A stretch of 64,000 bases of DNA from Scenedesmus sp. PABB004 (taxonomy: Eukaryota), in contig JABVCE010000003.1 of NCBI GenBank assembly GCA_014905635.1, forward strand, positions 1,550,001 to 1,614,000, written 5' to 3'. Below, in pieces: positions 8,645-61,859 of this stretch. Each line of letters begins with the position of its first letter. Within the stretch, counting starts at the first letter, position 1. The position numbers and the translations under genes were made by a program. The notes below the pieces were generated by a model, which worked only from the letters and a program-made list of their open reading frames with translations, was not told where the DNA came from and did no database searches.

Positions 8645-11457
8645 ATGGCCCAGGAGTTCCACGTCACCTGCTGGGTGCCCAAGGTGCGTGCGCACGCTCG
8701 CCAGCCAGGCGCTGGCTGCCCATGCGTCGCTGCAACCTGCACGCGCCCGCCGCCGCAGGTGCCGCCGACGGCGGCGCAGCAGCCCGCCCCCTGGCGGCCC
8801 GCGGGGAGCAACAGCCTGCACTCCACGGGCGCCGGCGATGCCGCCGCCACCGTGCGCAGCAGCCGCCTGTTCCGGCAGCTGGCCGGCGCGCCGCAGCAGG
8901 CCGCGCGCCCGCCCTCGCCCGCGGCAGAGCAGGCGCCCCGGGACGGGCCGCTGCGCGATAGCCGCATCTTCAAGCCGCGGCAGCACCAGCACCAGCCGCA
9001 GCAGCCGCAGCCCAGCAGACGCGGCCGCGCGGCCGGCGCTGCGGCGGCGGACAAGGAGAACGCCCCGCTGCGCAGCAGCCGCCTGTTCAAGGCCGGCGTC
9101 GGCGTCGGCGGGGCGCCGGCGCGCGCGGCGCCGGCGCGCACGGCGCTGGGCGGCCTGCGCGCCGTGCAGCAGGACCAGCAGGGCCGCGGCGGGGCCTGGC
9201 CCAGCGGGGGCGGCGTGCTGCAGCTGCTCGTGCCCCTCGGCACGCCGGCCGGCACGCCCGGGACCCAGCTGCGCTACGCGGCCGCGGCCGAGAGCAGCAG
9301 CACCGGCAGCGCCGCCGCCACGGCCAGCGGCAGCAGCGCCAGTGGCGGCCGCGCCTTTGGCGCCGCCCGGCGCCCCAGCCCGCCCAGCTCGCACTTTGTG
9401 TGCACCGGCAGCGGCGCGGGCGGCGGCGGCGGCGCCAGCCCCGGCCGCAAGCGGCGCGAGGCGCGCCAGGCCCGCGAGGCGGCGGCCGCGGTGCAGGCGC
9501 TGCTGTGGCAGGGCCAGCAGCTGTACCAACACCAGCAGCAGCGGGCGCCGACGCCGCGTGGACCGCAGGCGAGCCCAGCGCCCGCGTTTGCCGGCGGCGG
9601 GGACGCCTGCCTGACGCCCAGCAGCAGCGGCAGCAACGCGCTCCGGGAGCGGGGTGGCAGCGCGTGGGCGCCGTCCACCGGCGGCGCCGCGAGCGCCTGG
9701 CCGTCGAGCTCGCGGCAGAGCCCCGGCAGCTGCGGCGGCAGCGCGTGGAGCGGCGGCGCCAGCAGCGCGGCGGCGGCGTTGCGCGAGCCGGCTGCCAGCG
9801 ACGGGCTCTCAGTGCAGGACAGCGGCAGCAGCAGCAGCAGCAGCAGCAGCGGCGAAGCTAGGTGGGAGCCCCACGCAGAGGCGCTGCGTGCGGAGGCAGC
9901 AGGGGAGGCGGCGGCGTCACCCTGCCAGCTTGAGGGTGGGCAGCCGCCGCCGCAGCCGCCGTCGCAGCCGTCGCCGCAGCCGCCGCCGTCACCGCCATCG
10001 CCGCAGCGCCTGGCGGAGGGGCCGGCGGCGGCACCACAGCCCCTGGACGACGCGGCTGCGCCGCCGTCGCCCGCCGCGCGCAACGCCGCGAGCGCTGCGG
10101 CCAGCTACCGGGCGCTGCTGTGCTCGGCGCAGGCGCTTGTGACCAACTCGGAGCTGGCGTGGCTGAAGCTGAATAACTACCATCGGCAGCGCATCAGCGG
10201 TGAGGGGGCGCCGCGGCGAGGCGCGCCGCCGGGGCCGGACGCCCGACGCCCGCCGCGGCGCCCCTGTCCCTGCCCCTGCCCGCAGGCCCGCTGCCCGGCA
10301 GCCCGCTGCGCACGCCCGCGCGGCCGCTCAGCCGCATGGGCAGCGCCGCCAAGCAGCCGCCGGCGCAGGAGCAGCCGTCGGCGCCACTCCAGACGCCAAG
10401 CCGGGCGGGGCTGGGCGTGCTGCAGTTCAGCAGCCCCGCGCCGCTGGGCCGCCTGCTCGGCGGCGGGCTCGGCGGCATCGTGCTGCCAGGCTCCCCCGCG
10501 CGCACGCCCGGGGTGCGGCACTCGTCGCCGGGCGTCATGCTGACGTGCCTCACCGGCGCCAGCGGCCTCGCGACGCAGCCCGCGGCGCTGCGCAGCGCGC
10601 GCAGCAGCTCGCTGCGCGGCGACGGCCCCGGCGGCGCTGCGGGCCCGTGGCCCTCCTTGCAGGAGCCGCCCACGTCGCCGGCGGGCACCGTGTTCCTCAC
10701 CCCCGGCGCCGGCGCGGGCTCGGGCGCCAGCGGCGGCCCCGCAGCGGCCAGCGACGACGCGCCGTCGCGCAGCCCGTGGTGGCGTGCTGCGGCGGCGGCG
10801 GAGCAGCCGGCCGCGTGTGCTGGCAGGGCTGGCGGCGGCGGTGCAGACGATGGCGTCGTGCCGCGCGTGCTGTTTGGCGGGCTCGACGGCGCCAGCCCGG
10901 CGACAGCGCGGCGGCCCTGCCCCAGCCCCGAGGCGTTCCCGTTTGGCTGCGGCAGCGCCCAGGCTGCGCAGGCGGCGCCGGCGCAGCAGCCGCGCATGCG
11001 AGCTGATGCCGGCGGCGGCGTGCACGGCGCCAGCCCCCCGAGCGACAGCGCTGCAGCGCAGGCGCCCACAGACCAGGAATGCTGGTCTGTGCACACCAAC
11101 TGGGCGGCCGACGGTCTTGACATGCAGCACCCCGCGGCGCCGCCGGCGCCCGCGGCGCGGCTCGGGGACGGCCGTGGCGGCGCCACGCGGCCGCCGCTGG
11201 CGCCCCTCGGAGCCGACCGGCAGCGGGGCGATGCGGCGGGCGAGGTTTTGCTGGCGGTGGTGCGCGGCATCGAGAACCTCAGCCCCGCTGACGCGGCGCT
11301 CGCGTGCGAGCGCCTGGCGGCCCGGGCGAAGGCCGCGCGCGGCCACGGCGGCGGGGCGTCGCGGCCAGCGCTGACCAGCCGGGCGGACGTCGGCATGGTG
11401 CTGCCCTCGCCGACCGGCTGCGGGCGCTGGGCCGGCGCGTGCGGGGGCGGCAAGTGA
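8645..11457 (+). CDS. Hypothetical low-complexity (Ala/Pro/Ser/Gly) protein, probably 3 exons
   Basis: gccATGg start; plausible introns ~8684-8758 and ~10200-10285; long ORFs with coding-like codon usage; TGTAA at 11524 downstream; no recognisable domain. Confidence 0.55.
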
Positions 11458-50152: not shown

Positions 50153-53100
50153 TCAGGTTCCGCTGCTAGCAGCTGAGCTGCAGCCGGTCACCTGCACCAG
50201 GACGTCGCCCGACGACGACAGCTTGCCGCCGCCGCCGCTCGTGGGCTCCGCGACGACGACGCTGCCAAACTTGACCGACCCGCACCCGCCGCCCTCGGTC
50301 GGCGCGCTGAGCGGGCCGAGCTGGCCGATGGCGGTCCACGCCTTGGTGAAGCAGAGCGCCTCGGGCGTCGCCGGCGGCCGGCTGCCCACGAAGCTCACGG
50401 GCGGCCCCGCGCTGCTCGCGTTGGCGAGGTTGGACGTCGACGCCTCCTCCGACACCATGACGCAGCCGCCGAGCGTGATGTTGGGCGCGCCCGCGAGCCG
50501 CACGCTCAGCGGCGCGCTCGGCTCCCACGCCCGCCCGTCGGGCGCGAGCGCGAGCGCCGCCGCCGTGACGGTGGCCGGCGCGTCGCTGGGCAGCTGCGCG
50601 GTGTAGGTGCAGTTGACACCCGCGCCCCCGCCGGCGGCCGCGGGCGGCACCACCAGCACGGCCGCGCCGGTGGCGCCGGCGGGCCCCGCCGCCGCGCGCA
50701 TCGCGCTCGCGGGGCAGACCGCGCTGACCTCCAGCGGCGCGTCCAGGCCCGCCTGCGCGACCGTCACGCGCACCTCGGCCAGCGGCAGCGGCGCCGCGCC
50801 GGGGTTGGTCACGCCGACCACGCCCTTGACCTGGAAGAGCCGCGGTGGCGCCGCGTCGCCCGGCGCGGCGGCGGGCGCGCTGCGCCGCAGCACGACGCTG
50901 TGGTTGAACAGCGCCACGCCGCCGGCCGGCGCGGCCATCATCACCAGCAGCGGCGCCGCCACGCGCTCAGCCGCGGGCGCGGTCGTGACCGCGGCCGAGA
51001 CCGCGGCGCCGGCGGCGGGCGCGAGCGGGCGCAGCGTGTGCTCCAGCGTCCACTGGAAGCTCTGGCCGAGCGCGCCGACCGCGGGCGGCGCCAGCGTGAG
51101 CAGCGGCGCAGCGTCGGGGCAGCCCAGCACGCGGAGGGAGGCCGCGGCGGTCGCGGTCGCGTTGGCGGCGCCGCCGCCCAGGCCCGCCGTGAGCACCGCC
51201 TGCTGGTTGCCGCAGCTGCTGGCGGGCAGGGGGCCAAAGGTGGCGTTGAAGGCGTAGGTGAAGGGCTCGCACAGCCGCGCCGGCGCGGCGGGCGGCGGCG
51301 GCATCGCGCCGGCGGTCGCGGCGGGCTGCAGCGGCGCCGCCGCGCCGGCGGCGGGCGCGGCGCCGTCGAAAGCGGCCGACACGCTGGCGCACCTGCGTGG
51401 CGGCAGCGGCGGCGGCGGCGGCAGCGCGGCGTCGGCATCGGCTAGGAGCGGCCAGGGTTTAGAGGCATAGGCCCCCTGAACCCATCACTCTAACTTAAAC
51501 CCTGAAGCCTAGATCGCGGCGCCGCACCGCCCCGACTCGTAGACGGTCGCGTGCTCCCAGTCGAGCGGCCAGGGCGCCGGCGCGTCGGCTGCCTCGCCCG
51601 TGGATGTCTCGAGGCGCATCTCCACGACAGAGGCAAAGTCGTCCGGCACCGCCGCCACAAAGCTGCAGTAGAACGGCTGCGGCGACCCCGGCTCCGGTGC
51701 GGCCTCCTCCTCCGCGCCCGGCTCGGCCGCAGGCTCCGGCTGCGCCGCGGCCGCGCCGTCCGCCCCCGCGCCGCCACCGTCGCCGCCCGCCACCGCGCCC
51801 CTGCCGCGCCGGCCGAGCTTGATGTCAAAGGGCAGCCAGCGCGGCCGACTGGGCGCGGCGGGCGCGGCCGGCGGGGCTGGCGCGGATGCTGCCGCGGCCT
51901 CCGCGCCCGCGGCGGCCGCTGCGAGTGCAATCGGCGAGGCCGGCAGCGTGAACGACAGCACGGCGCCGTCGGGCGCGGCGTCGTCGGGCGCGGCGCCGTC
52001 TGCGCCGCCGGCAGCCGCGGCCGCGGCCGCGTCGTCGGGCGCGGCGCCGTCTGCGCCGCCGGCAGCCGCGGCCGCGGCCGCGGCCGCGCGCGCGGTGGCG
52101 GCCTCTGACGCGACGACGTAGTCAGACGCGCAGACGGCCGCGCCGGTGAGGGGCGGCTCGCCGTCGGGCCGCGACAGGCTGTAGCGCGCGGCCGCCACGG
52201 TCAGCGGCGTGGCGTGGGGGTTGATCACGCCCAGCAGGCCCTGCACCTTGCGCCCGCCGACCGCGTCGGTGCGGCTGTAGCTGACCGCCCACTGCGACGT
52301 GGCGCGGGCGGCGTACTGCATCGCGCCGCTCGGCGGGGCCGACGCGTTGACCGCCCACGCAAAGGTGCGCTTGGCGGTGAGCTGCAGGTCCGCCCAGGAG
52401 AGCTCGGGCACGACGCCGCAGCCGGTGAGCCGCAGCGGCGAGGTCAGCACGGCGCTGACGGCCGGCTCGGCCGGCGCGCCGCCGGTCGCGCGGGGCTTGA
52501 CGGTCAGCGCCAGCACGCCCTGCGCGCCAGGGCGGGACGCGAGAGGGCGGGGGCAGGAGGAAGGCGGCGGCTGGGCGCGCGCGCGCACGAGCAAGCGGTC
52601 GCGCGCGATCACGCGGCCCGCGCGCGGCCGCCGCGCCGCACCAGGCTGCTGCCGCAGTCGGCGGAGGTGAATCCCTCGTACGCCTCCACCCAGCTCACGG
52701 CCTCGCCGGCGCACACGGTCAGCGGCTGCTGCTGCTGGCCCAGCAGGCGCGCCGGCGCGGCGGGCGCCGGCGGCGCGGTGCCCTCGACCAGCCGCGCGGG
52801 CGCGACCAGCCGCTCGCCGCCCTCGCCGCCGACCGCCGCGAGCGCGGCGGCGAGGTCGGGGCTGGCCGCGAGCTCCTCGGCCGGCACCGCCGACACGTTG
52901 GCCACGCGCATCGCCCACACGTCCGCGCAGGCGCGCTCGGTGAGCGGCGCGGGCGCGAGGCCGGCGACGTCAAAGCGCTGCGGCGGCCCGCTGTCGACCT
53001 CTGCCGGGTTGGCCGACAGCGGCGTGCGATACTGCGCCTGGACCGTGCCCGAGCCCACGCCGGGCGGCAGCGGCGCCGCAAAGGTGCAGCGCAGGCTGCC

Positions 53101-54549
53101 GGGCGCGAGCACCTGCGGCGGGACGACGATCGCGCCCTGCGCGCCGAGCGGGCACGTCGCCGCCACGGCGATCGGCGCCGGCGGCGCCGCGGCGCCCGCG
53201 CCGGGCGCGCTCGCGTTGGCGCCGCCCGGCGGGTCGGGCGTGAGCAGCACGCGCACGGCCGCGAGGACGTACGGCACCAGCTGCGTGTTGGTGAGCTCCA
53301 CGCTGCCCGCGAGCGCGTCCGGGCCGTCCGGGGCGCGCTCGAGGCTGAGCTCGGAGCGCACCAGCACGGTCGCGTTGAACGGGACAGCCGCGCCGGGCGC
53401 CGCGCCCTGCACGGCGCTGCTGGTCGAGACGAGCCAGCGCGCGGCGCCGGCCTTGCCCGTGCCGAGCGGGCCGAGCGACACCGCGGGCTTGACCAGGCCC
53501 AGCAGGTCCCGCTGGCGGCACCCGCTCGCCACGAGCGTCCCGCCGGCGGGCTTGATGTCGGCCGAGGCAAAGCCGCCGACCGCGAGCGCCGGCGCGTTGC
53601 GGAACTGCGGCGGCGCGCATCGGCGCGGGTGGGCGCGTCAGGCGCGCCGCCGCGCATGCCGGGCGCGGGGCCACGCGCGCGCGCAGACCTGGAAGGTGCC
53701 GCAGACGTCCGTCGCGCCAAAGGGCCCCACGGCCATGGAGTAGGTGAAGCTGGCGGCCTGCTCGCACACCTGCACGCCGCCGGCAAACAGCTGCGCGCCC
53801 GGCGAACCCGACGCGGCGGGCTGCAGCACAAAGCCTGCGCTCGCGGCGCCAGCGTCGACCGCGTCGCGTAGCGTGGCGCACGCGGTGCTGGTGTCGGCGC
53901 CCGCCGGCGCCGCCGCCGGCGCCGCCGGCCAGGACACCGGCAGCAGCTCGCCGAGCACCCCGCGCACCGCGCCCGCCAGCTGCACGCTGGGCTGGACGGT
54001 GGTGACGCCCGGGCGCGTGCCGAGCTGGAGGTTGAACGCGCAGGACGCCGACTCCCCGGGCGCGAGGTCGCGCGGGCGGCACGACTCCAGCACGCGCTGC
54101 GTGGGGCCCAGCAGCGGCAGCCCCGGGCCGAGCAGCAGGCGGATGCCCTCCACGCGCACTGGCGCGTCGCCGCCGTTTGACAGCACCACGCGGCCCGCCA
54201 GCGCGAAGCCCGTGCCTGCCGAAGCGCGCGACACGTCGACGCGCCAGGTCGCGACGGCAGACGCAGTCCCGCCGTACAGCGTCAGCGTGCTCGGGCTGGG
54301 GCTGATCAGGCTGCTGCGCACCGTCCAAGCCTGCGCGGGGCCGACCTGGGGATCGAGGCCGCGCACGGCGACGCGGAAGCCGCCGCCGGCAGCGCCCGCA
54401 GCGGCGGCGCCGCCGCTCAGCAGCGCCAGCAGCGCCAGCAGGCCTGCACGTGCAGACGGGGCGGCGCTGCGTGGGCTGGGGCGCGGCCGCAGCTCGAGCG
54501 GAGGCCAGCATCTGCCTGCCCCCCTGCGCTCGCCTGTCCGGCGCGCCAT
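50153..54549 (-). CDS. Putative secreted protein built from four ~270-330-aa Cys-patterned beta-rich repeats
   Basis: N-terminal hydrophobic LLALLALLSGGAAAA; four modules, each with W-x-V/L, G-x-V-x-(V/L)-x-N and a C..C..C..C..CG..GC pattern; introns near 54445-54534, 53606-53687, 52520-52641 and 51393-51530. Confidence 0.65.
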
Positions 54550-54821
54550 CGAAACCATCGCTTTTGGAGTGTCAAAGAGCTCCTGAAGTCATGGCGGGGG
54601 CCGCAGAAGCCTGGGCGCGCAGAGGGCAAAACTGGGAGCGCGGGAAGGGGCGTCGCGGCCCGCCCGCGGGCGGCGAGTGCGTGCGGAAGCGTCTACGAGT
54701 CGCGGAACGTGGCTTGGCAGCGCAAATTGGCCCCGCGCGCGCGAGCTGCGTGCGTGATGGCGCCGCGTACTGCCGGCTGCAGCTGCGCGCCGCGCAACGA
54801 TTGCTCCGCGCCCTCACGCCC

Positions 54822-56760
54822 TCACGCCGTCAGCCGCAGCGGGCTCACGAGCAGAGCCAGGTCCGCCACGGGCTGCGCCGTGAGCGCGCGCCGCGCCGCG
54901 CGCCGCCGGCCGCGCTTTGCGGCCTTGGCGAGCGTGTCGCGCGCGAGCGGCGCCCACTGCGCCGCGGTCGAAAAGTCATCGATGCCCATGCCTGGAGGGT
55001 TCAGGGCCGAGGTGGGGAGGGGGCGGGCGAGGCGGAGGGCTCGGCCGGGCGGCGGCGGCGCGCGGCGAGTGCCGCAGCGGCGAGCGCCAGCGCTGCGTCC
55101 GCGCGCGCACCGTTGGCCATGCCGCGCAGCAGCTGCACCACGCGCAGCACGAAAAACATGTCGGGCGGGAAGCGCTCGATCGCGGCCTGCTTGATGGGCG
55201 AGTTCTTGTCAAAGGGGTCCACCTGCGGGCGCCGCCGGTGCGTTCGCGGCCTCAGGAGAGGCCCGAGCGCTGGGCCCGCTCGTGCGCCCGGCCGCGCACC
55301 CGGCCGCGCGTGTCAAACATGCCGAACGCCATCTCCGCGCGCAGCGCCGCGTCGTCCTTGGACGTCTCCACGCGCAGCGCGCCCAGCGCGGCCGAGATGG
55401 CAGCCGCGTCGCCCCTGCGCGCCAGCGCCGGCGCGCCCGCCCGTCGGCGCGCCGCGCCGCGCCCAGTGCCGCCCCGCCCCGCCGCCGCGCCCCGCCGCGC
55501 CTTGCCGCGCCCCGCCCCGCCCCGCCGCTCTCCGCCCTCTGCGCGCGCCGCACCGGTCCATCGCGAGCACGAGCTCCGCGAAGCTCGCCCGGTCGGCCTC
55601 GCCGAGCTGCTTGCTCTGCCCATAGTCGAGCAGCGCGACGCGGCCGCCCGGCTGGACCATGATGTTGCCCGGGTGCCCATCCGCCTGGAAGAGGCCCTCA
55701 CCCAGGATCATGCGCCCGTACGCCTCGCTCACGCGCGACAGGATGCGCCGCGCCGCCTGCACGGCCGCGCCGGCAGCCACGACGGTGGACGCGCGCGGGC
55801 GGCGGCGGGCGTGCGCGGGCGGCGGCGGTGCGCGGGCGCCAAGGCGGCAGGCGCGCCGCAGGCGGCGGCCGCGGGCGCGGCGCACCTTCTCGCGCTTCCA
55901 CGCGGGCAGGTGGGCGACCTTGTCGCGCAGCTGCGTGAGCGGCACGCCCTGCGCGCGCGGCGGTGGCGGGCGTCGGCGGGCGGGCGGGCGCGCGTCCCGC
56001 GGCTGCGCGCCCGCGCGCGGGCCTGCCCCCTCCTCACACTCGCCCGTCCACACACAGCCCCGCCCACCTCCATGAAGGTCATCACCATCAGCCGCTGGCT
56101 CACCAGCCCCGGCACGCTGCGCGGCACGACGACGCGCCCCGACAGCGGCGCCAGGTGGGCCGCGATCGTGTCCATCACCCGCGCCTCCCTGGCGGGCGGT
56201 GCGGCGCGCGCGCCGCGCCAGCACGGCGTCACACGGCGGCCGCGGCGGCGGCAGGCGGCGGGCGCGGCGGCCGGCTGCGCGGCGGCGGCGGCGGCGGCGC
56301 GGCCGCGCGCGCACGCCGCAGCAGCGGCCAGCCGCAGCAGCCAGCCGGGGCGGCGCACCGCATGAAGTCGAACTCGAGGTGTATCTGGCGCTGCATCTCC
56401 TCGACCGCGCTGAGCAGGTCAAACTTGAGCTCCGTCTTTTGCAGGAACGCCGACGTCGCGCGCAGGTTGACCAGGTCGAGCGTCATCGTCGCGAGCGCGC
56501 CCGGGTACTGCACCTTGACCGCGACCAGCCCGCCGTCGGGCACGCTGCCCGCGGCCGCCGCGTGCGCGACCGCGGCGGCCGCGGGGCTCGTGACGGCCGG
56601 CAGGCCCGCGCCGTCGGCGGGCGCGCGCCGCGCGGCGCCGCCGCCGCGGCGCGCGCCGCCCGCGACGAGCGGCAGCAGGTGCCCGCCCTTGCCGAGCTCG
56701 CCGCCCCCGGCGAGGAAGCTCGCGCCCGGCTCCAGCGCCCAGTCGCTGCTGCCGTCCGCC

Positions 56761-56795
<35 letters not shown>

Positions 56796-58114
56796 GCCGT
56801 CGCCGCTGCCGCTGCTGCTCGCGGCGCTGGCCTCGCTGGGCGCCCTGCTGCCGCCGCCGTCGGCCGCGCCGCCAAACCAGGCCGCCAGTCCCTGCAGCCC
56901 CCGCCCGCTGCCGCCGCGCTGCCGTGCGGCGGGCTGCTGCTTCTGCTGCTGCTGGAAGTGCTGCAGGCCCAGCACGACGGGCACCTGCAGCACCTCGCCC
57001 GGCTGCAGGTCGTCGAGGTCGGCCGACCGGTTGGCCGCCGCCAGCTCAGCGAGGCTGATGCCGTGGCTGTTGCAGATGCTCCACGCGGTGTCGCCCGGCG
57101 CGACCGCCACCGGCGCGAGCAGCCCGCGCTCGCGCCGCGCCAGGCTGTGCAGCGCGTCGCGCGGGAAGCGCCGCAGGCGCGCCTTGTGGACCTGCGGCGC
57201 CGGCGGCGGGGGGCTGGGCGCCGCGCGCCGCGGCGCTCGCGCGCGGCCGCGCCCCCTAGCCCCAGGGCGCCCCTCGCCCGCCCCCACCCCTCTGGGCCGC
57301 CGCCCCGCGCCCACCACGCCGCCCGCCGCCCGCCGCCGCGCGGCGCCGCCGTGCCTGCGAGATTGACGCGGAGCCGATGGGCTTGTCAAGGTCGATCCAT
57401 TCAAACACCTCTGACAGCTCCTGGATGCCCAGCTCCTCGCACACCACCTGGCGCGCGCGCGCGCGCGCGCGCGCGCGTGAGGCGCCAGCGGCGAGCGGGC
57501 CGTGCTCGGAGCGCAGCGGCGCCAGGCCCCCGGCGGCGCGGCGCGCACCTGCTGTGCGCGCTCGCGGCTCATCGGCGGCACCTGGTCCTGCAGCAGGCAG
57601 AGCCGTGCGCAGATCTGCTCCGGCACAAAGTCGGCGCGCGCGCCAATGAACTGCCCCGCCTGCGGCGCGGCGCGGCGCGGCGCGGCGGGCAGCGGGCCTC
57701 GGCGGCGCGGCAGGCCTCGGCGGCGCGGCTCGGCGGTGCAAGCGGCTGAGCGGCGGCACAGCGGCGGCGGCGCGCCTTGAGGTAGAAGCCCCGCAGGCTG
57801 ATGCAGAGGTCGTACATGGCGTCGCCTGCGCGGTGCAGCGGCGGCGGCGCACTCGTGCGGCGCACTCGTGCGGCCGCGTGCGGAGCCGCGCCCGCCTGCG
57901 CGCGCGGGGCGCGCCGCGCACCCGCCCACGCGTGCTGCGCGTCCCAGAGCGGCCGCGTGTCGCGCCCCTGGGCGGCCGCGAGCGCCGCGCGCAGCTGGGT
58001 GAGCTTGTAGGCGGTGTATATGTGCGCGACGCGGCCGAAGAACGCGCCGCTGCGGACCAGGTTCTGCACCGGCCGCGGCGCGCGCGCCAGGAGGTCGTGC
58101 TCCGGCGCCGCCAT
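54822..58114 (-). CDS. ABC1/UbiB/ADCK atypical kinase with an internal LysM domain, ~11 exons
   Basis: LRGFYLKAGQF, LQDQVPP, PIGSASISQVHKA, VAVKVQYPG, EFDFMREA, MTFMEG, FQADGHPGNI, LLDYG; LysM at 56979-57110. Confidence 0.9.
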
Positions 58115-58816
58115 GCCACCGGCGGGGGGACCCGGGGAGGGCGGGGGCGCGGGGCGACGGCCTGCGCGGCGGCGGCGCCGGGTGGGCGCGCGGCGCAGCG
58201 GCGACCGCGCCGCTGCTGCTGCCGCGCTGCCGCCGGCCGCGCTCGCCGGCGCGGGCGCGACGCGCCGCACCGCAATGCTGGCGCAGAGTCTGATGCGCCC
58301 GGCGTGGAGCGCGGCTGGCAGCCGGAGACCGCGCGCGGTCGCTGCTGCCGCTGCTGCTGCCGCTGCGGCGTGCGCGAGCGGCATGCGCGGGCGGCGTGTG
58401 CGTGATCGTCGAGATCGCGGTGGAGCCGTGCGCGATCCGGCCCGCTGCTGTGGAAACGCGGGCTCAACGTGTGAAGACGCTCGACGGCGGCGTCACAGCA
58501 CCCGGGGCGCAGCGCATGTGCGCGGCGGACCGGCTGCGCGCACCACGCACGCTTCACCAGGGCGCGCTGCTGCTGCTGCGCTGAGGCCGCCGGCAGCGCG
58601 CTCGCCTGCGCGCCGCGCCGCCGGGTCGGCGCTGCGCGCGCTGCCGGGTCCTCGCCGCTGGCAGCCGGCGCGCCGCTGGCGGCCCAGGGCTGCCCCAGCT
58701 CTGGCGCGCGCACTCCGCACGCCAGCTGGCACCGCGCCTGCTCGGCGCTGCGCGCGCAGGCGCGCCGGCAGGCGCTCCGGGGGGGGGGTTGCGTCTGACG
58801 AGGGCGGCCGCAGCCG

Positions 58817-59475
58817 TCATCGCTCGTCCCGGTCCTGCTGCTGCTGCTGCTGCTCCTGCTGCTGCTGCTGCTCCTGCTGCTGCGCCGACTGCTGCTGCCC
58901 CGCCGCCGCCGCCGCCGCCGCGGCCGCCGCCGCGGCCGCCGCGGGCCGCTTGGCCAGCCCGCCGCCGCCGGCGCCGGCGCCGGCGTGCGCGAGCGTGCCG
59001 AGCAGGCAGCGCTCGAGCAGCGCGTGGCCGTTGACCCAGGGGTGGTACTTGTTGAACAGCGCCGTGCCGTCCCGCCCCGCCGCGCGCAGCAGCACGTCGG
59101 CGCCGCCCGGGTGGAATCTAAGGTAGGGCGTGATGTTGTACACGCGCCCGCCGAGCGCCATCCACGCGTCGTCGGGCGCCGCGTGCGCGCGCAGCTCGGC
59201 GGCGCTGATGTCGCGCCGGCGCCCGTGGCCGCCTGCGCGCGCGGCGCGTGGGCGGGGCCGAGGGCGCGGGCACGCGGGCGCGCGCGCGCCGCGCCGCGCC
59301 CGGCGTCGCCGCGCCGCACCCGTGAGGTCGGCGCTCGAGCGCGACACGCGCAGCCAGTCGACCTGGCTGAACCCCTTCTCGAGAGGCACCTTGTTGCGCC
59401 GCCCCTCTGCGGCGACCTGCGGAGCCGCGCGGCGTTCACGAGGGCGCGGCGCGCAGCGGCGCAGCAGCGCAGCCC

Positions 59476-60798: not shown

Positions 60799-61188
60799 TT
60801 ACTCGGCGGCGGCCTCGCCCTTCTTGCCCTTCTTGGGCAGGAGCATGGTGTGGATGTTGGGCAGCACGCCGCCGGAGGCGATGGTCACGGTGCCCAGGAG
60901 CTTGGAGAGCTCCTCGTCGTTGCGGATGGCGAGCTGGATGTGGCGGGGGATGATGCGGTTCTTCTTGTTGTCACGCGCGGCGTTGCCGGCCAGCTCCAGC
61001 ACCTCGGCCGCGAGGTACTCGAGCACCGCCGCGAGGTACACGGGCGCGCCCGCGCCGATGCGCTCGGCGTAGCGGCCCTTCTTCAGGTAGCGCGCCAGGC
61101 GGCCCACGGGGAACTGGAGGCCCGCCTTGGAGGAGCGGGACACCGCCTTGCCCTTGGCCTTGCCGGCCGCCTTGCCGCGCCCAGACAT
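60799..61188 (-). CDS. H2A: Histone H2A (copy 3)
   Basis: Identical protein to copies 1 and 2. Confidence 0.99.
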
Positions 61189-61493
61189 GGTGGCTGCTGA
61201 GTCGGGGTGGGGGTTGACTGCGGGGTGCTGGGTCGCTGCTGCAGCGGTGTTGCCGGCGGCGGGCCCGTGAGGGCGCTCATATACGCGCCCACGCCAGCGA
61301 GGAGGCGGGCGGGCGGCAGCGACGGCTCGAGCTCAGGCGGGGCGGTCTCGCGCTCTGAGCTGAGCTGAGTGCGGCGCGCACGTTGTTGCCCCGCGCCCTG
61401 CCCTACAAAAGGCCCGGCCCCGCCCCCCGGCGCCCAACCCGTGCCCTCGTCGCACCCAGACGCACCCCCCGCACCCCCCACCAGCCCGGCACC

Positions 61494-61859
61494 ATGGCCC
61501 CCAAGGCCGCTGAGAAGGCTCCGGCCAAGGCGCCCGCCAAGAAGACCACCGACGGCAAGGGCAAGAAGAAGAAGGTCTCCAAGGCCGAGACCTACAAGAT
61601 TTACATCTACAAGGTGCTCAAGCAGGTGCACCCCGACACCGGCATCAGCTCCAAGGCGATGTCCATCATGAACAGCTTCATCAACGACATCTTTGAGAAG
61701 ATTGCCGGCGAGGCCTCCCGCCTGGCCCGCTACAACAAGAAGCCCACCATCACCTCGCGCGAGATCCAGACCGCCGTGCGCCTCATCCTGCCCGGCGAGC
61801 TCGCCAAGCACGCCGTGTCTGAGGGCACCAAGGCCGTGACCAAGTTCACCTCCGCCTAA
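61494..61859 (+). CDS. H2B: Histone H2B (copy 3)
   Basis: Identical protein to copies 1 and 2. Confidence 0.99.

Follow-up and report, generated by a model that had tools for sequence, protein, structure and literature searches.

A LysM domain in the beta2-beta3 loop of an AKC2-type UbiB kinase from Scenedesmus sp. PABB004 and related green algae

Introduction

What does a LysM domain do in the middle of an atypical kinase? The question was raised by a minus-strand gene (58114..54822) of the ABC1/UbiB family in a 64,000-nucleotide stretch of Scenedesmus sp. PABB004 DNA (assembly GCA_014905635.1, contig JABVCE010000003.1, positions 1,550,001 to 1,614,000; the whole stretch is called the window below). 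A preliminary description of the window had placed a LysM in a long in-frame insert within the N-lobe of the kinase and hinted at a glycan-sensing enzyme from a family of organellar kinases. The insert contains a true LysM domain, and the window protein is an orthologue of Chlamydomonas reinhardtii AKC2 (Cre06.g307100; XP_001691373). We hold it about an even chance (roughly 0.5) that the LysM is a docking or localisation appendage on a UbiB-type enzyme that is presumably active. The new observations are the mapping of the LysM to the beta2-beta3 loop across algal lineages, the pattern of its absence, the intact kinase motifs, the short N-termini of the orthologues and the drift of the LysM groove.

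The insert and its LysM domain

VHKA begins at 57191 and VAVK at 56525 on the minus strand, and the 218 codons between them all lie in one open exon (57191-56359). The equivalent loop has 9 residues in Rosa and Calypogeia, giving a net insert of about 210 amino acids (aa) in the window; the size first proposed for the insert between SASISQVHKA and VAVKVQYP was correct, with the refinement that a GC-AG intron of 163 nucleotides (nt) separates SASISQ (end of exon 4) from VHKA (start of exon 5). The ABC1 profile matched on both sides, with positions 23-45 before the insert (weakly, E 0.14) and 48-110 after it. The suspicion that the insert might fail to score as a LysM was dispelled, as PF01476 scored 41.1 bits on the exon and 45.4 bits on the domain alone against a cut-off of 20.9. 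In the AlphaFold prediction the window LysM folded as beta-alpha-alpha-beta with a mean predicted local distance difference test (pLDDT) score of 88, and its top Foldseek matches were solved LysM domains (root-mean-square deviation 0.8-1.6 A, probability 1.0, E about 1e-3). Profile scores, predicted fold and structural matches thus bore out a LysM in the N-lobe of an ABC1/UbiB kinase, at the position originally given.

Gene model and coding status of the insert

The gene model was built from splice motifs, and its 11 exons form a single 687-aa open frame interrupted by eight GT-AG introns and two GC-AG introns, the latter after exons 2 and 4 (Table 1). Over its full length the model aligned with the complete protein P0126, which derives from a transcript of Enallax costatus; identical residues numbered 110/153 before the insert, 12/23 in the lead-in helix, 31/44 in the LysM, 72/151 in the linker and 251/316 after the insert. 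P0126 retains the whole insert and P0100, also transcript-derived, conserves the LysM. Judged from these proteins, the insert is shown to be coding in relatives.

It is very improbable that the insert or its LysM is spliced out in Scenedesmus sp. PABB004 itself. A GC donor-like site at 57182 is identical over 9 bases to the true exon-2 donor, and splicing from it to either of two acceptor-like sites, 56985 and 56892, could keep the frame and skip the LysM. However, a 9-nt microexon and most of the linker would remain after such skipping, P0126 and P0100 conserve the LysM in their protein sequences, and the codon-position GC content of the insert is exon-like (third-codon GC 0.98 versus 0.95 in the kinase core). 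The GC content of the window is 73-83% per 2 kb, in an assembly of 40 Mb and 80 contigs. A splice-like pair from 56984 to 56892 could remove 31 linker codons in frame.

An upstream in-frame ATG at 58384 would give an extra 90-aa leader free of acidic residues. It is less likely than ATG 58114 to be the start, because Tetradesmus proteins begin at the equivalent of 58114, where the context is also better (G at -3 and +4). An intron-like stretch of 109 nt (58162-58270, minus strand) lies 5' of ATG 58114, and its splicing would shift ATG 58384 out of frame.

Table 1. Positions in the window of the kinase gene, its motifs and the parts of the insert
Feature	Position	Strand	Remark
Kinase gene (AKC2 orthologue)	54822..58114	-	splice-motif model; end-to-end alignment with transcript-derived P0126
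Exons	58114-57922, 57825-57776, 57659-57549, 57447-57355, 57191-56359, 56188-56068, 55948-55886, 55756-55554, 55414-55300, 55222-55111, 54991-54822	-	
KxGQ motif YLKAGQ, interrupted by intron 2	57651..57784	-	
A-rich nucleotide-binding loop GSASISQ, end of exon 4	57355..57375	-	
GC-AG intron, 163 nt, SASISQ/VHKA	57192..57354	-	joined form agrees with P0126
Strand beta2 (VHKA) and basic helix into insert	57123..57191	-	strand 152-159, helix 164-174 in the model of homologue P0003
LysM domain, aa 177-220, non-canonical GDTAW start	56979..57110	-	PF01476 45.4 bits; fold; 31/44 identical to P0126
Gly/Ser/Ala-rich linker, predicted largely disordered	56589..56978	-	shorter linker of P0003 model has pLDDT <50
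Linker island common only to Scenedesmaceae relatives	56664-56750	-	
Conserved Ala-rich helix back to kinase N-lobe	56529..56588	-	helix 288-296 in P0003 model
Strand beta3 with catalytic Lys, VAVKVQYP	56502..56525	-	
Catalytic loop ADGHPGN and metal-binding motif LLDYG	55619..55684	-	

Kinase motifs and predicted fold

All UbiB motifs were present in the window protein: YLKAGQ, GSASISQ, AVKVQY (beta3 Lys), LEFDF (alphaC Glu), ADGHPGN and LLDYG. PF03109 scored above its curated cut-off on single exons (31.8 and 49.4 bits) and reached 124-161 bits on full relatives. The predicted structure of the Tetradesmus protein P0003, whose insert of 149 aa is shorter than that of the window, had a pLDDT of 85 and a predicted template modelling (TM) score of 0.83. 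Both beta2 (152-159) and beta3 (305-311) were formed in this model, one helix led into the LysM, another led back, and residues 241-284 were disordered. The insertion point does not change among the relatives; in the model it is flanked by the two helices, and the kinase folds around the insert with its catalytic motifs kept. Against COQ8A the TM score was 0.72 by target length, and the top 12 Foldseek rows were all COQ8A, Rv3197 or MSMEG_1954; a COQ8-like fold is assigned to the gene family from this predicted homologue structure, not from the window protein. Judged by motifs and predicted fold, the gene encodes an intact atypical kinase/ATPase of the UbiB family. In this fold the beta2-beta3 turn points away from the ATP site.

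Orthology with AKC2

The full C. reinhardtii sequence was not among the matches, and the comparison with AKC2 rests on its peptides and on the C. incerta and C. schloesseri proteins. Of three published AKC2 peptides, two matched C. incerta P0016 exactly and one at 14/15 residues. P0016 shared one supported clade with the window protein, and P0062 is named AKC2 by NCBI. The peptide matches to P0016 tie AKC2 to the clade of the window protein. With the insert removed, the kinase core gave a 27-row clade at 98 and a 10-row clade at 96; the window protein was sister to Tetradesmus plus Enallax.

Cre06.g307100 is listed as AKC2 with the Phytozome domains PF03109 and PF01476, a PredAlgo call of 'O', AT4G24810 as best Arabidopsis match, and reads in wild type (PMC10760936). 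The LysM of AKC2 had already been noted by Boyd et al. in 2011, who proposed protein-interaction roles for the LysMs of AKC2 and EYE2 (PMC3084665). The novelty implied for the combination in the preliminary description did not hold, the ABC1 plus LysM architecture being on record for AKC2. The literature covered, with subscription papers and several supplements outside the scope, yielded neither a functional study of AKC2 or its LysM nor a description of the LysM as an intradomain insertion.

Distribution and history of the insert

Two homologue searches, one of which listed the best 120 of 155 matches, yielded 121 proteins. One bacterial LysM protein and two fragments without the region were left out of the loop scoring, and two Trebouxia-type rows were judged by eye; both carry the LysM. 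Among the remaining 117 rows (window included), 35 had a LysM in the loop, which answered the suggestion of an architecture search across algae; 55 had a LysM-less insert of at least 30 aa, and 27 had a short loop. In a first Pfam control the LysM was above cut-off in 5/7 predicted carriers and just below it in the other two. In a second, it was found in 8/8 predicted carriers and in none of 4 predicted non-carriers (12/12 in agreement).

The carriers included Tetradesmus, Enallax, Monoraphidium, Chlamydomonas, Volvox, Gonium, Pleodorina, Astrephomene, Dunaliella and Sanguina, together with Bryopsis, Ostreobium, Tetraselmis and Trebouxia C0005. LysM-less inserts were seen in Chlorella, Micractinium, Parachlorella, Auxenochlorella, Nannochloris, Coccomyxa, Elliptochloris, one Myrmecia protein and a pedinophyte, and short loops in Rosa, Calypogeia, Pyramimonas, stramenopiles and a second trebouxiophyte set. 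Among the listed matches, Chlorophyceae, Bryopsidales, Tetraselmis and Trebouxia thus have the LysM in the beta2-beta3 loop, and the orthologues from Chlorellales and Coccomyxa lack it. A further 136 proteins came from a profile search of 1.84 billion representatives, with loops of up to 25 aa in 95, longer loops in 17 and loops that were not measurable in 24; two loops above 60 aa (P0169 and P0212) were anchor mis-picks and were disregarded. Four kinase-type matches of this search carry a LysM. One of the four, P0128, has a minimal 70-aa loop and falls outside the core-chlorophyte clade. The insert-free tree follows algal taxonomy, and the simplest reading of the sequences would be one early gain of the LysM and several losses.

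This distribution also bears on the view that the LysM is a passenger or purely structural domain, inserted long ago into a loop that tolerates additions, serving only as a folded spacer and lost freely. In LysM-less orthologues the loop holds inserts of 44-156 aa that are unrelated, and in the second trebouxiophyte set it measures 9-17 aa; the Pfam LysM score drops to 18-24 bits in Volvocales. These features are what a passenger would allow. By contrast, identity to the Enallax protein is 70% in the LysM, 48% in the part of the insert that follows it and 79% in the C-terminal part of the kinase, and the LysM has been kept across four algal classes with family-specific surface residues. We regard the passenger view as unlikely.

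In the short-loop trebouxiophyte relatives P0068, P0069, P0071 and P0072 the kinase is followed by a TspO/MBR domain; P0069 additionally contains a P450 piece and may be a merged gene model. The Chlorellales orthologues P0024, P0032, P0056, P0057 and their kin have Trp/Arg-rich, possibly membrane-binding segments in the loop where the LysM sits elsewhere. The idea that LysM-less inserts form amphipathic helices is no more than a weak lead, with 11/54 inserts beating shuffles at p<=0.05 and many rows being close kin. Trp/Arg-rich segments are frequent in LysM-less inserts; a hydrophobic moment of at least 0.6 was found in 23/54 of these inserts and in 4/35 post-LysM linkers, and that of the window's own loop segment was no better than shuffles (p 0.165). 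Two ABC1 matches in the genome lie at nearly identical positions (near bases 9800-10400) close to the start of contigs C46 and C66, perhaps in duplicated subtelomeric DNA or through assembly redundancy.

The LysM groove and glycan binding

In the AtlA LysM, the T13A and L14A changes lower the affinity for the N-acetylglucosamine (GlcNAc) pentamer GlcNAc5 by 60- and 80-fold, and one module binds at about 12 uM (PMC4083421). In the T. thermophilus complex, V21, G24, T26, L27, Y28, F50, L52 and Q53 touch the sugar, many through the main chain (PMC4356369). At these groove positions the window LysM keeps the Val, Gly, Thr, Leu52 and Gln53 equivalents, and has Ala at L27 (L14 of AtlA) and Asp at F50. 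We compared 34 orthologue LysMs (after three near-duplicates were dropped) with 36 control repeats from three bacterial multi-LysM proteins. The L14 position was Ala in 24, L/V/I in 8 and Pro or Gly in 2 of the orthologues, versus a large hydrophobic residue in 36/36 and Ala in 0/36 of the controls; Thr or Ser stood at the T13 position in 13/34 and 35/36, respectively. The residue after the L14 position was Trp in 27/34 orthologues, and a family-specific Asn was also present in 27/34. The Thr was lost in 12/13 Chlamydomonadales rows and 3/3 ulvophyte-like rows, and Thr/Ser was kept in 6/6 Sphaeropleales rows. At the L14 position L/V/I is retained in Tetraselmis- and Trebouxia-type members, and the Tetraselmis-type members and one deep-branching member are nearer the canonical motif. 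The GlcNAc groove is non-canonical and may still function; GlcNAc binding is weakly disfavoured. This drift, in which a conserved G-x-x-A-W-x-x-C-N surface replaces the canonical GDT(L/F) groove in Chlorophyceae and Bryopsidales, suggests a ligand other than long GlcNAc chains.

A glycan-sensing atypical kinase, recruited or switched when its LysM binds an endogenous GlcNAc glycan or fragments of chitin or peptidoglycan, is doubtful on this evidence. The canonical LysM fold with solved chitin/peptidoglycan binders as nearest structures, the 12 uM binding by a single AtlA LysM, the near-canonical members, the Thr/Ser of Sphaeropleales and an SLT protein with two LysMs encoded in the same genome would all suit it. 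Weighing against it are the Ala and Asp substitutions in the window LysM, the loss of Thr in Chlamydomonadales and ulvophyte-like rows, and the absence of the LysM from the listed Chlorellales, Coccomyxa and land-plant orthologues; no leader is evident, so the LysM would face an intracellular compartment without a known ligand. From the preliminary description the real LysM stands, and the glycan-sensing function attached to it is weakly disfavoured by the groove changes, the single LysM copy and the whole lineages without it.

A more specific form, rather improbable in our estimate, would make AKC2 an intracellular GlcNAc-glycan sensor of chlorophyte algae whose LysM, on binding bacterial or fungal wall fragments or, at the plastid envelope, an endogenous GlcNAc polymer, switches the UbiB ATPase; that the two stalk helices would do so by pulling on the beta2-beta3 hairpin is a similarly slim prospect. 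If true, this would make AKC2 a UbiB protein gated by a ligand, and LysM-based perception would have a route separate from that of plant receptor kinases.

Other LysM matches were seen in this genome. An open frame on contig C14 (about 657630-659250, plus strand) encodes an SLT domain of the lytic transglycosylase type (PF01464, 27.1 bits) ahead of two LysM stretches that together score 54.2 bits. An F-box-like protein also carries a LysM (stretch L003:1261-1632), and a LysM (23.3 bits) ends a Cys-containing open frame with no other Pfam match (stretch L004:910-1650).

Cellular location and the eyespot

Most full-length orthologues begin 75-100 aa before GFYLK. A cleavable plastid or mitochondrial leader, the rule in plant ABC1Ks, is argued against for the AKC2 clade because of these short N-termini and the PredAlgo call of 'O' for AKC2. 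The organellar setting first assumed for the kinase is accordingly doubtful for this clade.

Three peptides of AKC2 have been detected in an eyespot fraction that also contained envelope and plasma membrane (PMC4678213). In another study AKC2 rose 2-fold under heat, was quantified in the soluble proteome and was classed as a GreenCut protein (PMC3186191). AKC2 might be specific to the eyespot and work there alongside EYE2, MIN1 and the ABC1 kinase EYE3. In favour of such a role are its peptides in the extended eyespot fraction and the LysMs that EYE2 and MIN1 carry. The missing LysM of Chlorellales and Coccomyxa, which are not known to form flagellate cells, would also suit it. However, Monoraphidium and Tetradesmus retain the LysM, and no eyespot is known from their vegetative cells. 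In addition, none of the at least three other LysM matches in the genome resembled a C2-LysM or thioredoxin-LysM protein, and the soluble quantification of AKC2 does not favour this role, which we consider quite improbable. Identity of the window gene with EYE3 itself was rejected, its orthologue being AKC2.

A role for AKC2 in starch metabolism was not taken as support. The starch mutant CAT24 has its insertion in Cre06.g307100, with a linkage that its authors describe as unproven; the locus numbered directly after it, Cre06.g307150, encodes a beta-amylase and is that of mutant CAT4 (PMC3760859).

A proposed role of the LysM as a docking appendage

UbiB proteins regulate prenyl-lipid handling using ATP at a membrane or lipid surface, and the AKC2-type enzyme would work in the same way. 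In the docking or localisation reading, the LysM module would have entered the beta2-beta3 loop of an AKC2 ancestor once, early in chlorophyte evolution. The enzyme probably acts outside the organelle interior, because no transit peptide is evident. Held out on its two helices, the LysM would tie the enzyme to a partner protein or a membrane-contact site and would not be required for catalysis. In favour of this reading are the constant insertion site, the drifted groove with its family-specific Trp and Asn, the protein-interaction roles proposed by Boyd et al. and the AKC2 peptides in the eyespot fraction with its envelope and plasma membrane.

Several points weigh against this reading. The docking partner is putative. 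The backbone of the tree is poorly resolved, and a single gain with losses is simply the most economical reading. The 90-aa acid-free leader that ATG 58384 could add might direct import into an organelle. The extended eyespot fraction held 742 proteins, including contaminants (PMC4678213). At the chitohexaose contacts of the T. thermophilus structure, many of which are main-chain, the window LysM has retained Gly, Asp, Thr, Leu and Gln. Leu is not obligatory at the L14 position, where a fern chitinase LysM has Cys. Finally, the 34 algal and 36 control sequences are related and not independent.

The finding itself is ordinary, the domain pair being already on record, and a modest value remains. 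The family is a natural series on one kinase, with the LysM present, a LysM-less insert or a short loop, and Chlamydomonas is a direct test system for the AKC2 question. The answer would show what single intracellular algal LysMs bind, and whether the beta2-beta3 loop of a UbiB enzyme can serve to position or regulate it.

Neighbouring features of the window

A long Ala/Gly/Val-rich coding region with a hydrophobic leader lies at 52100-54550 on the minus strand, and its part 53641-54540 had no Pfam match. On the other side is a cytochrome b5-domain gene (58970-59230, minus strand, 85 bits). A divergent gene pair at 60799-61859 looks by eye like histones H2A and H2B. A similar element containing AAAACACCA stands downstream of the cytochrome b5-domain gene and after each gene of the pair.

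Comparison with known systems

AKC2 is the nearest known system, and the window protein differs from its Chlamydomonas counterparts in the length of the insert (219 aa versus 126-129 in C. incerta and C. schloesseri) and in the Thr kept in its LysM motif, which is Gly in those two species. The Rosa and Calypogeia orthologues form the sister group, with common motifs and about 40% identity; they differ in their 9-residue beta2-beta3 loop, the lack of a LysM, and ADPHPGN in place of ADGHPGN in the catalytic loop. Arabidopsis At4g24810, the best match of AKC2 in that plant, is presumably ABC1K12, a mapping not found in the main texts. ABC1K11-15 have been placed in a 'mitochondrial clade', and the ABC1K12 side has been described as poorly defined (PMC7288548, PMC11625579, PMC12568898, PMC12890914).

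Human COQ8A and the mycobacterial proteins Rv3197 and MSMEG_1954 have the fold in common with the family, together with KxGQ, the A-rich loop, the catalytic Lys and the Asp. However, they are 14-19% identical, and only a few residues separate VH from VAVK. The eyespot proteins EYE2 (LysM-thioredoxin) and MIN1 (C2-LysM) both carry a LysM (PMC3084665), and EYE3 is an ABC1 kinase in the same fraction, for which the text consulted reports no LysM. The likeness, drawn by description, is a single intracellular LysM proposed as a protein-interaction module, on proteins other than AKC2. Plant LysM receptor-like kinases (CERK1, NFP/LYK) likewise join a LysM fold and a kinase-like domain in one chain. 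As described in the sources available, they have three extracellular LysMs, a membrane span and a conventional kinase, whereas the window protein has one LysM inside the UbiB kinase domain (PF03109). The NFP/LYK LysM1 model scored 13.7 bits on the window against a cut-off of 36, in agreement with the original view that this is not the plant receptor architecture.

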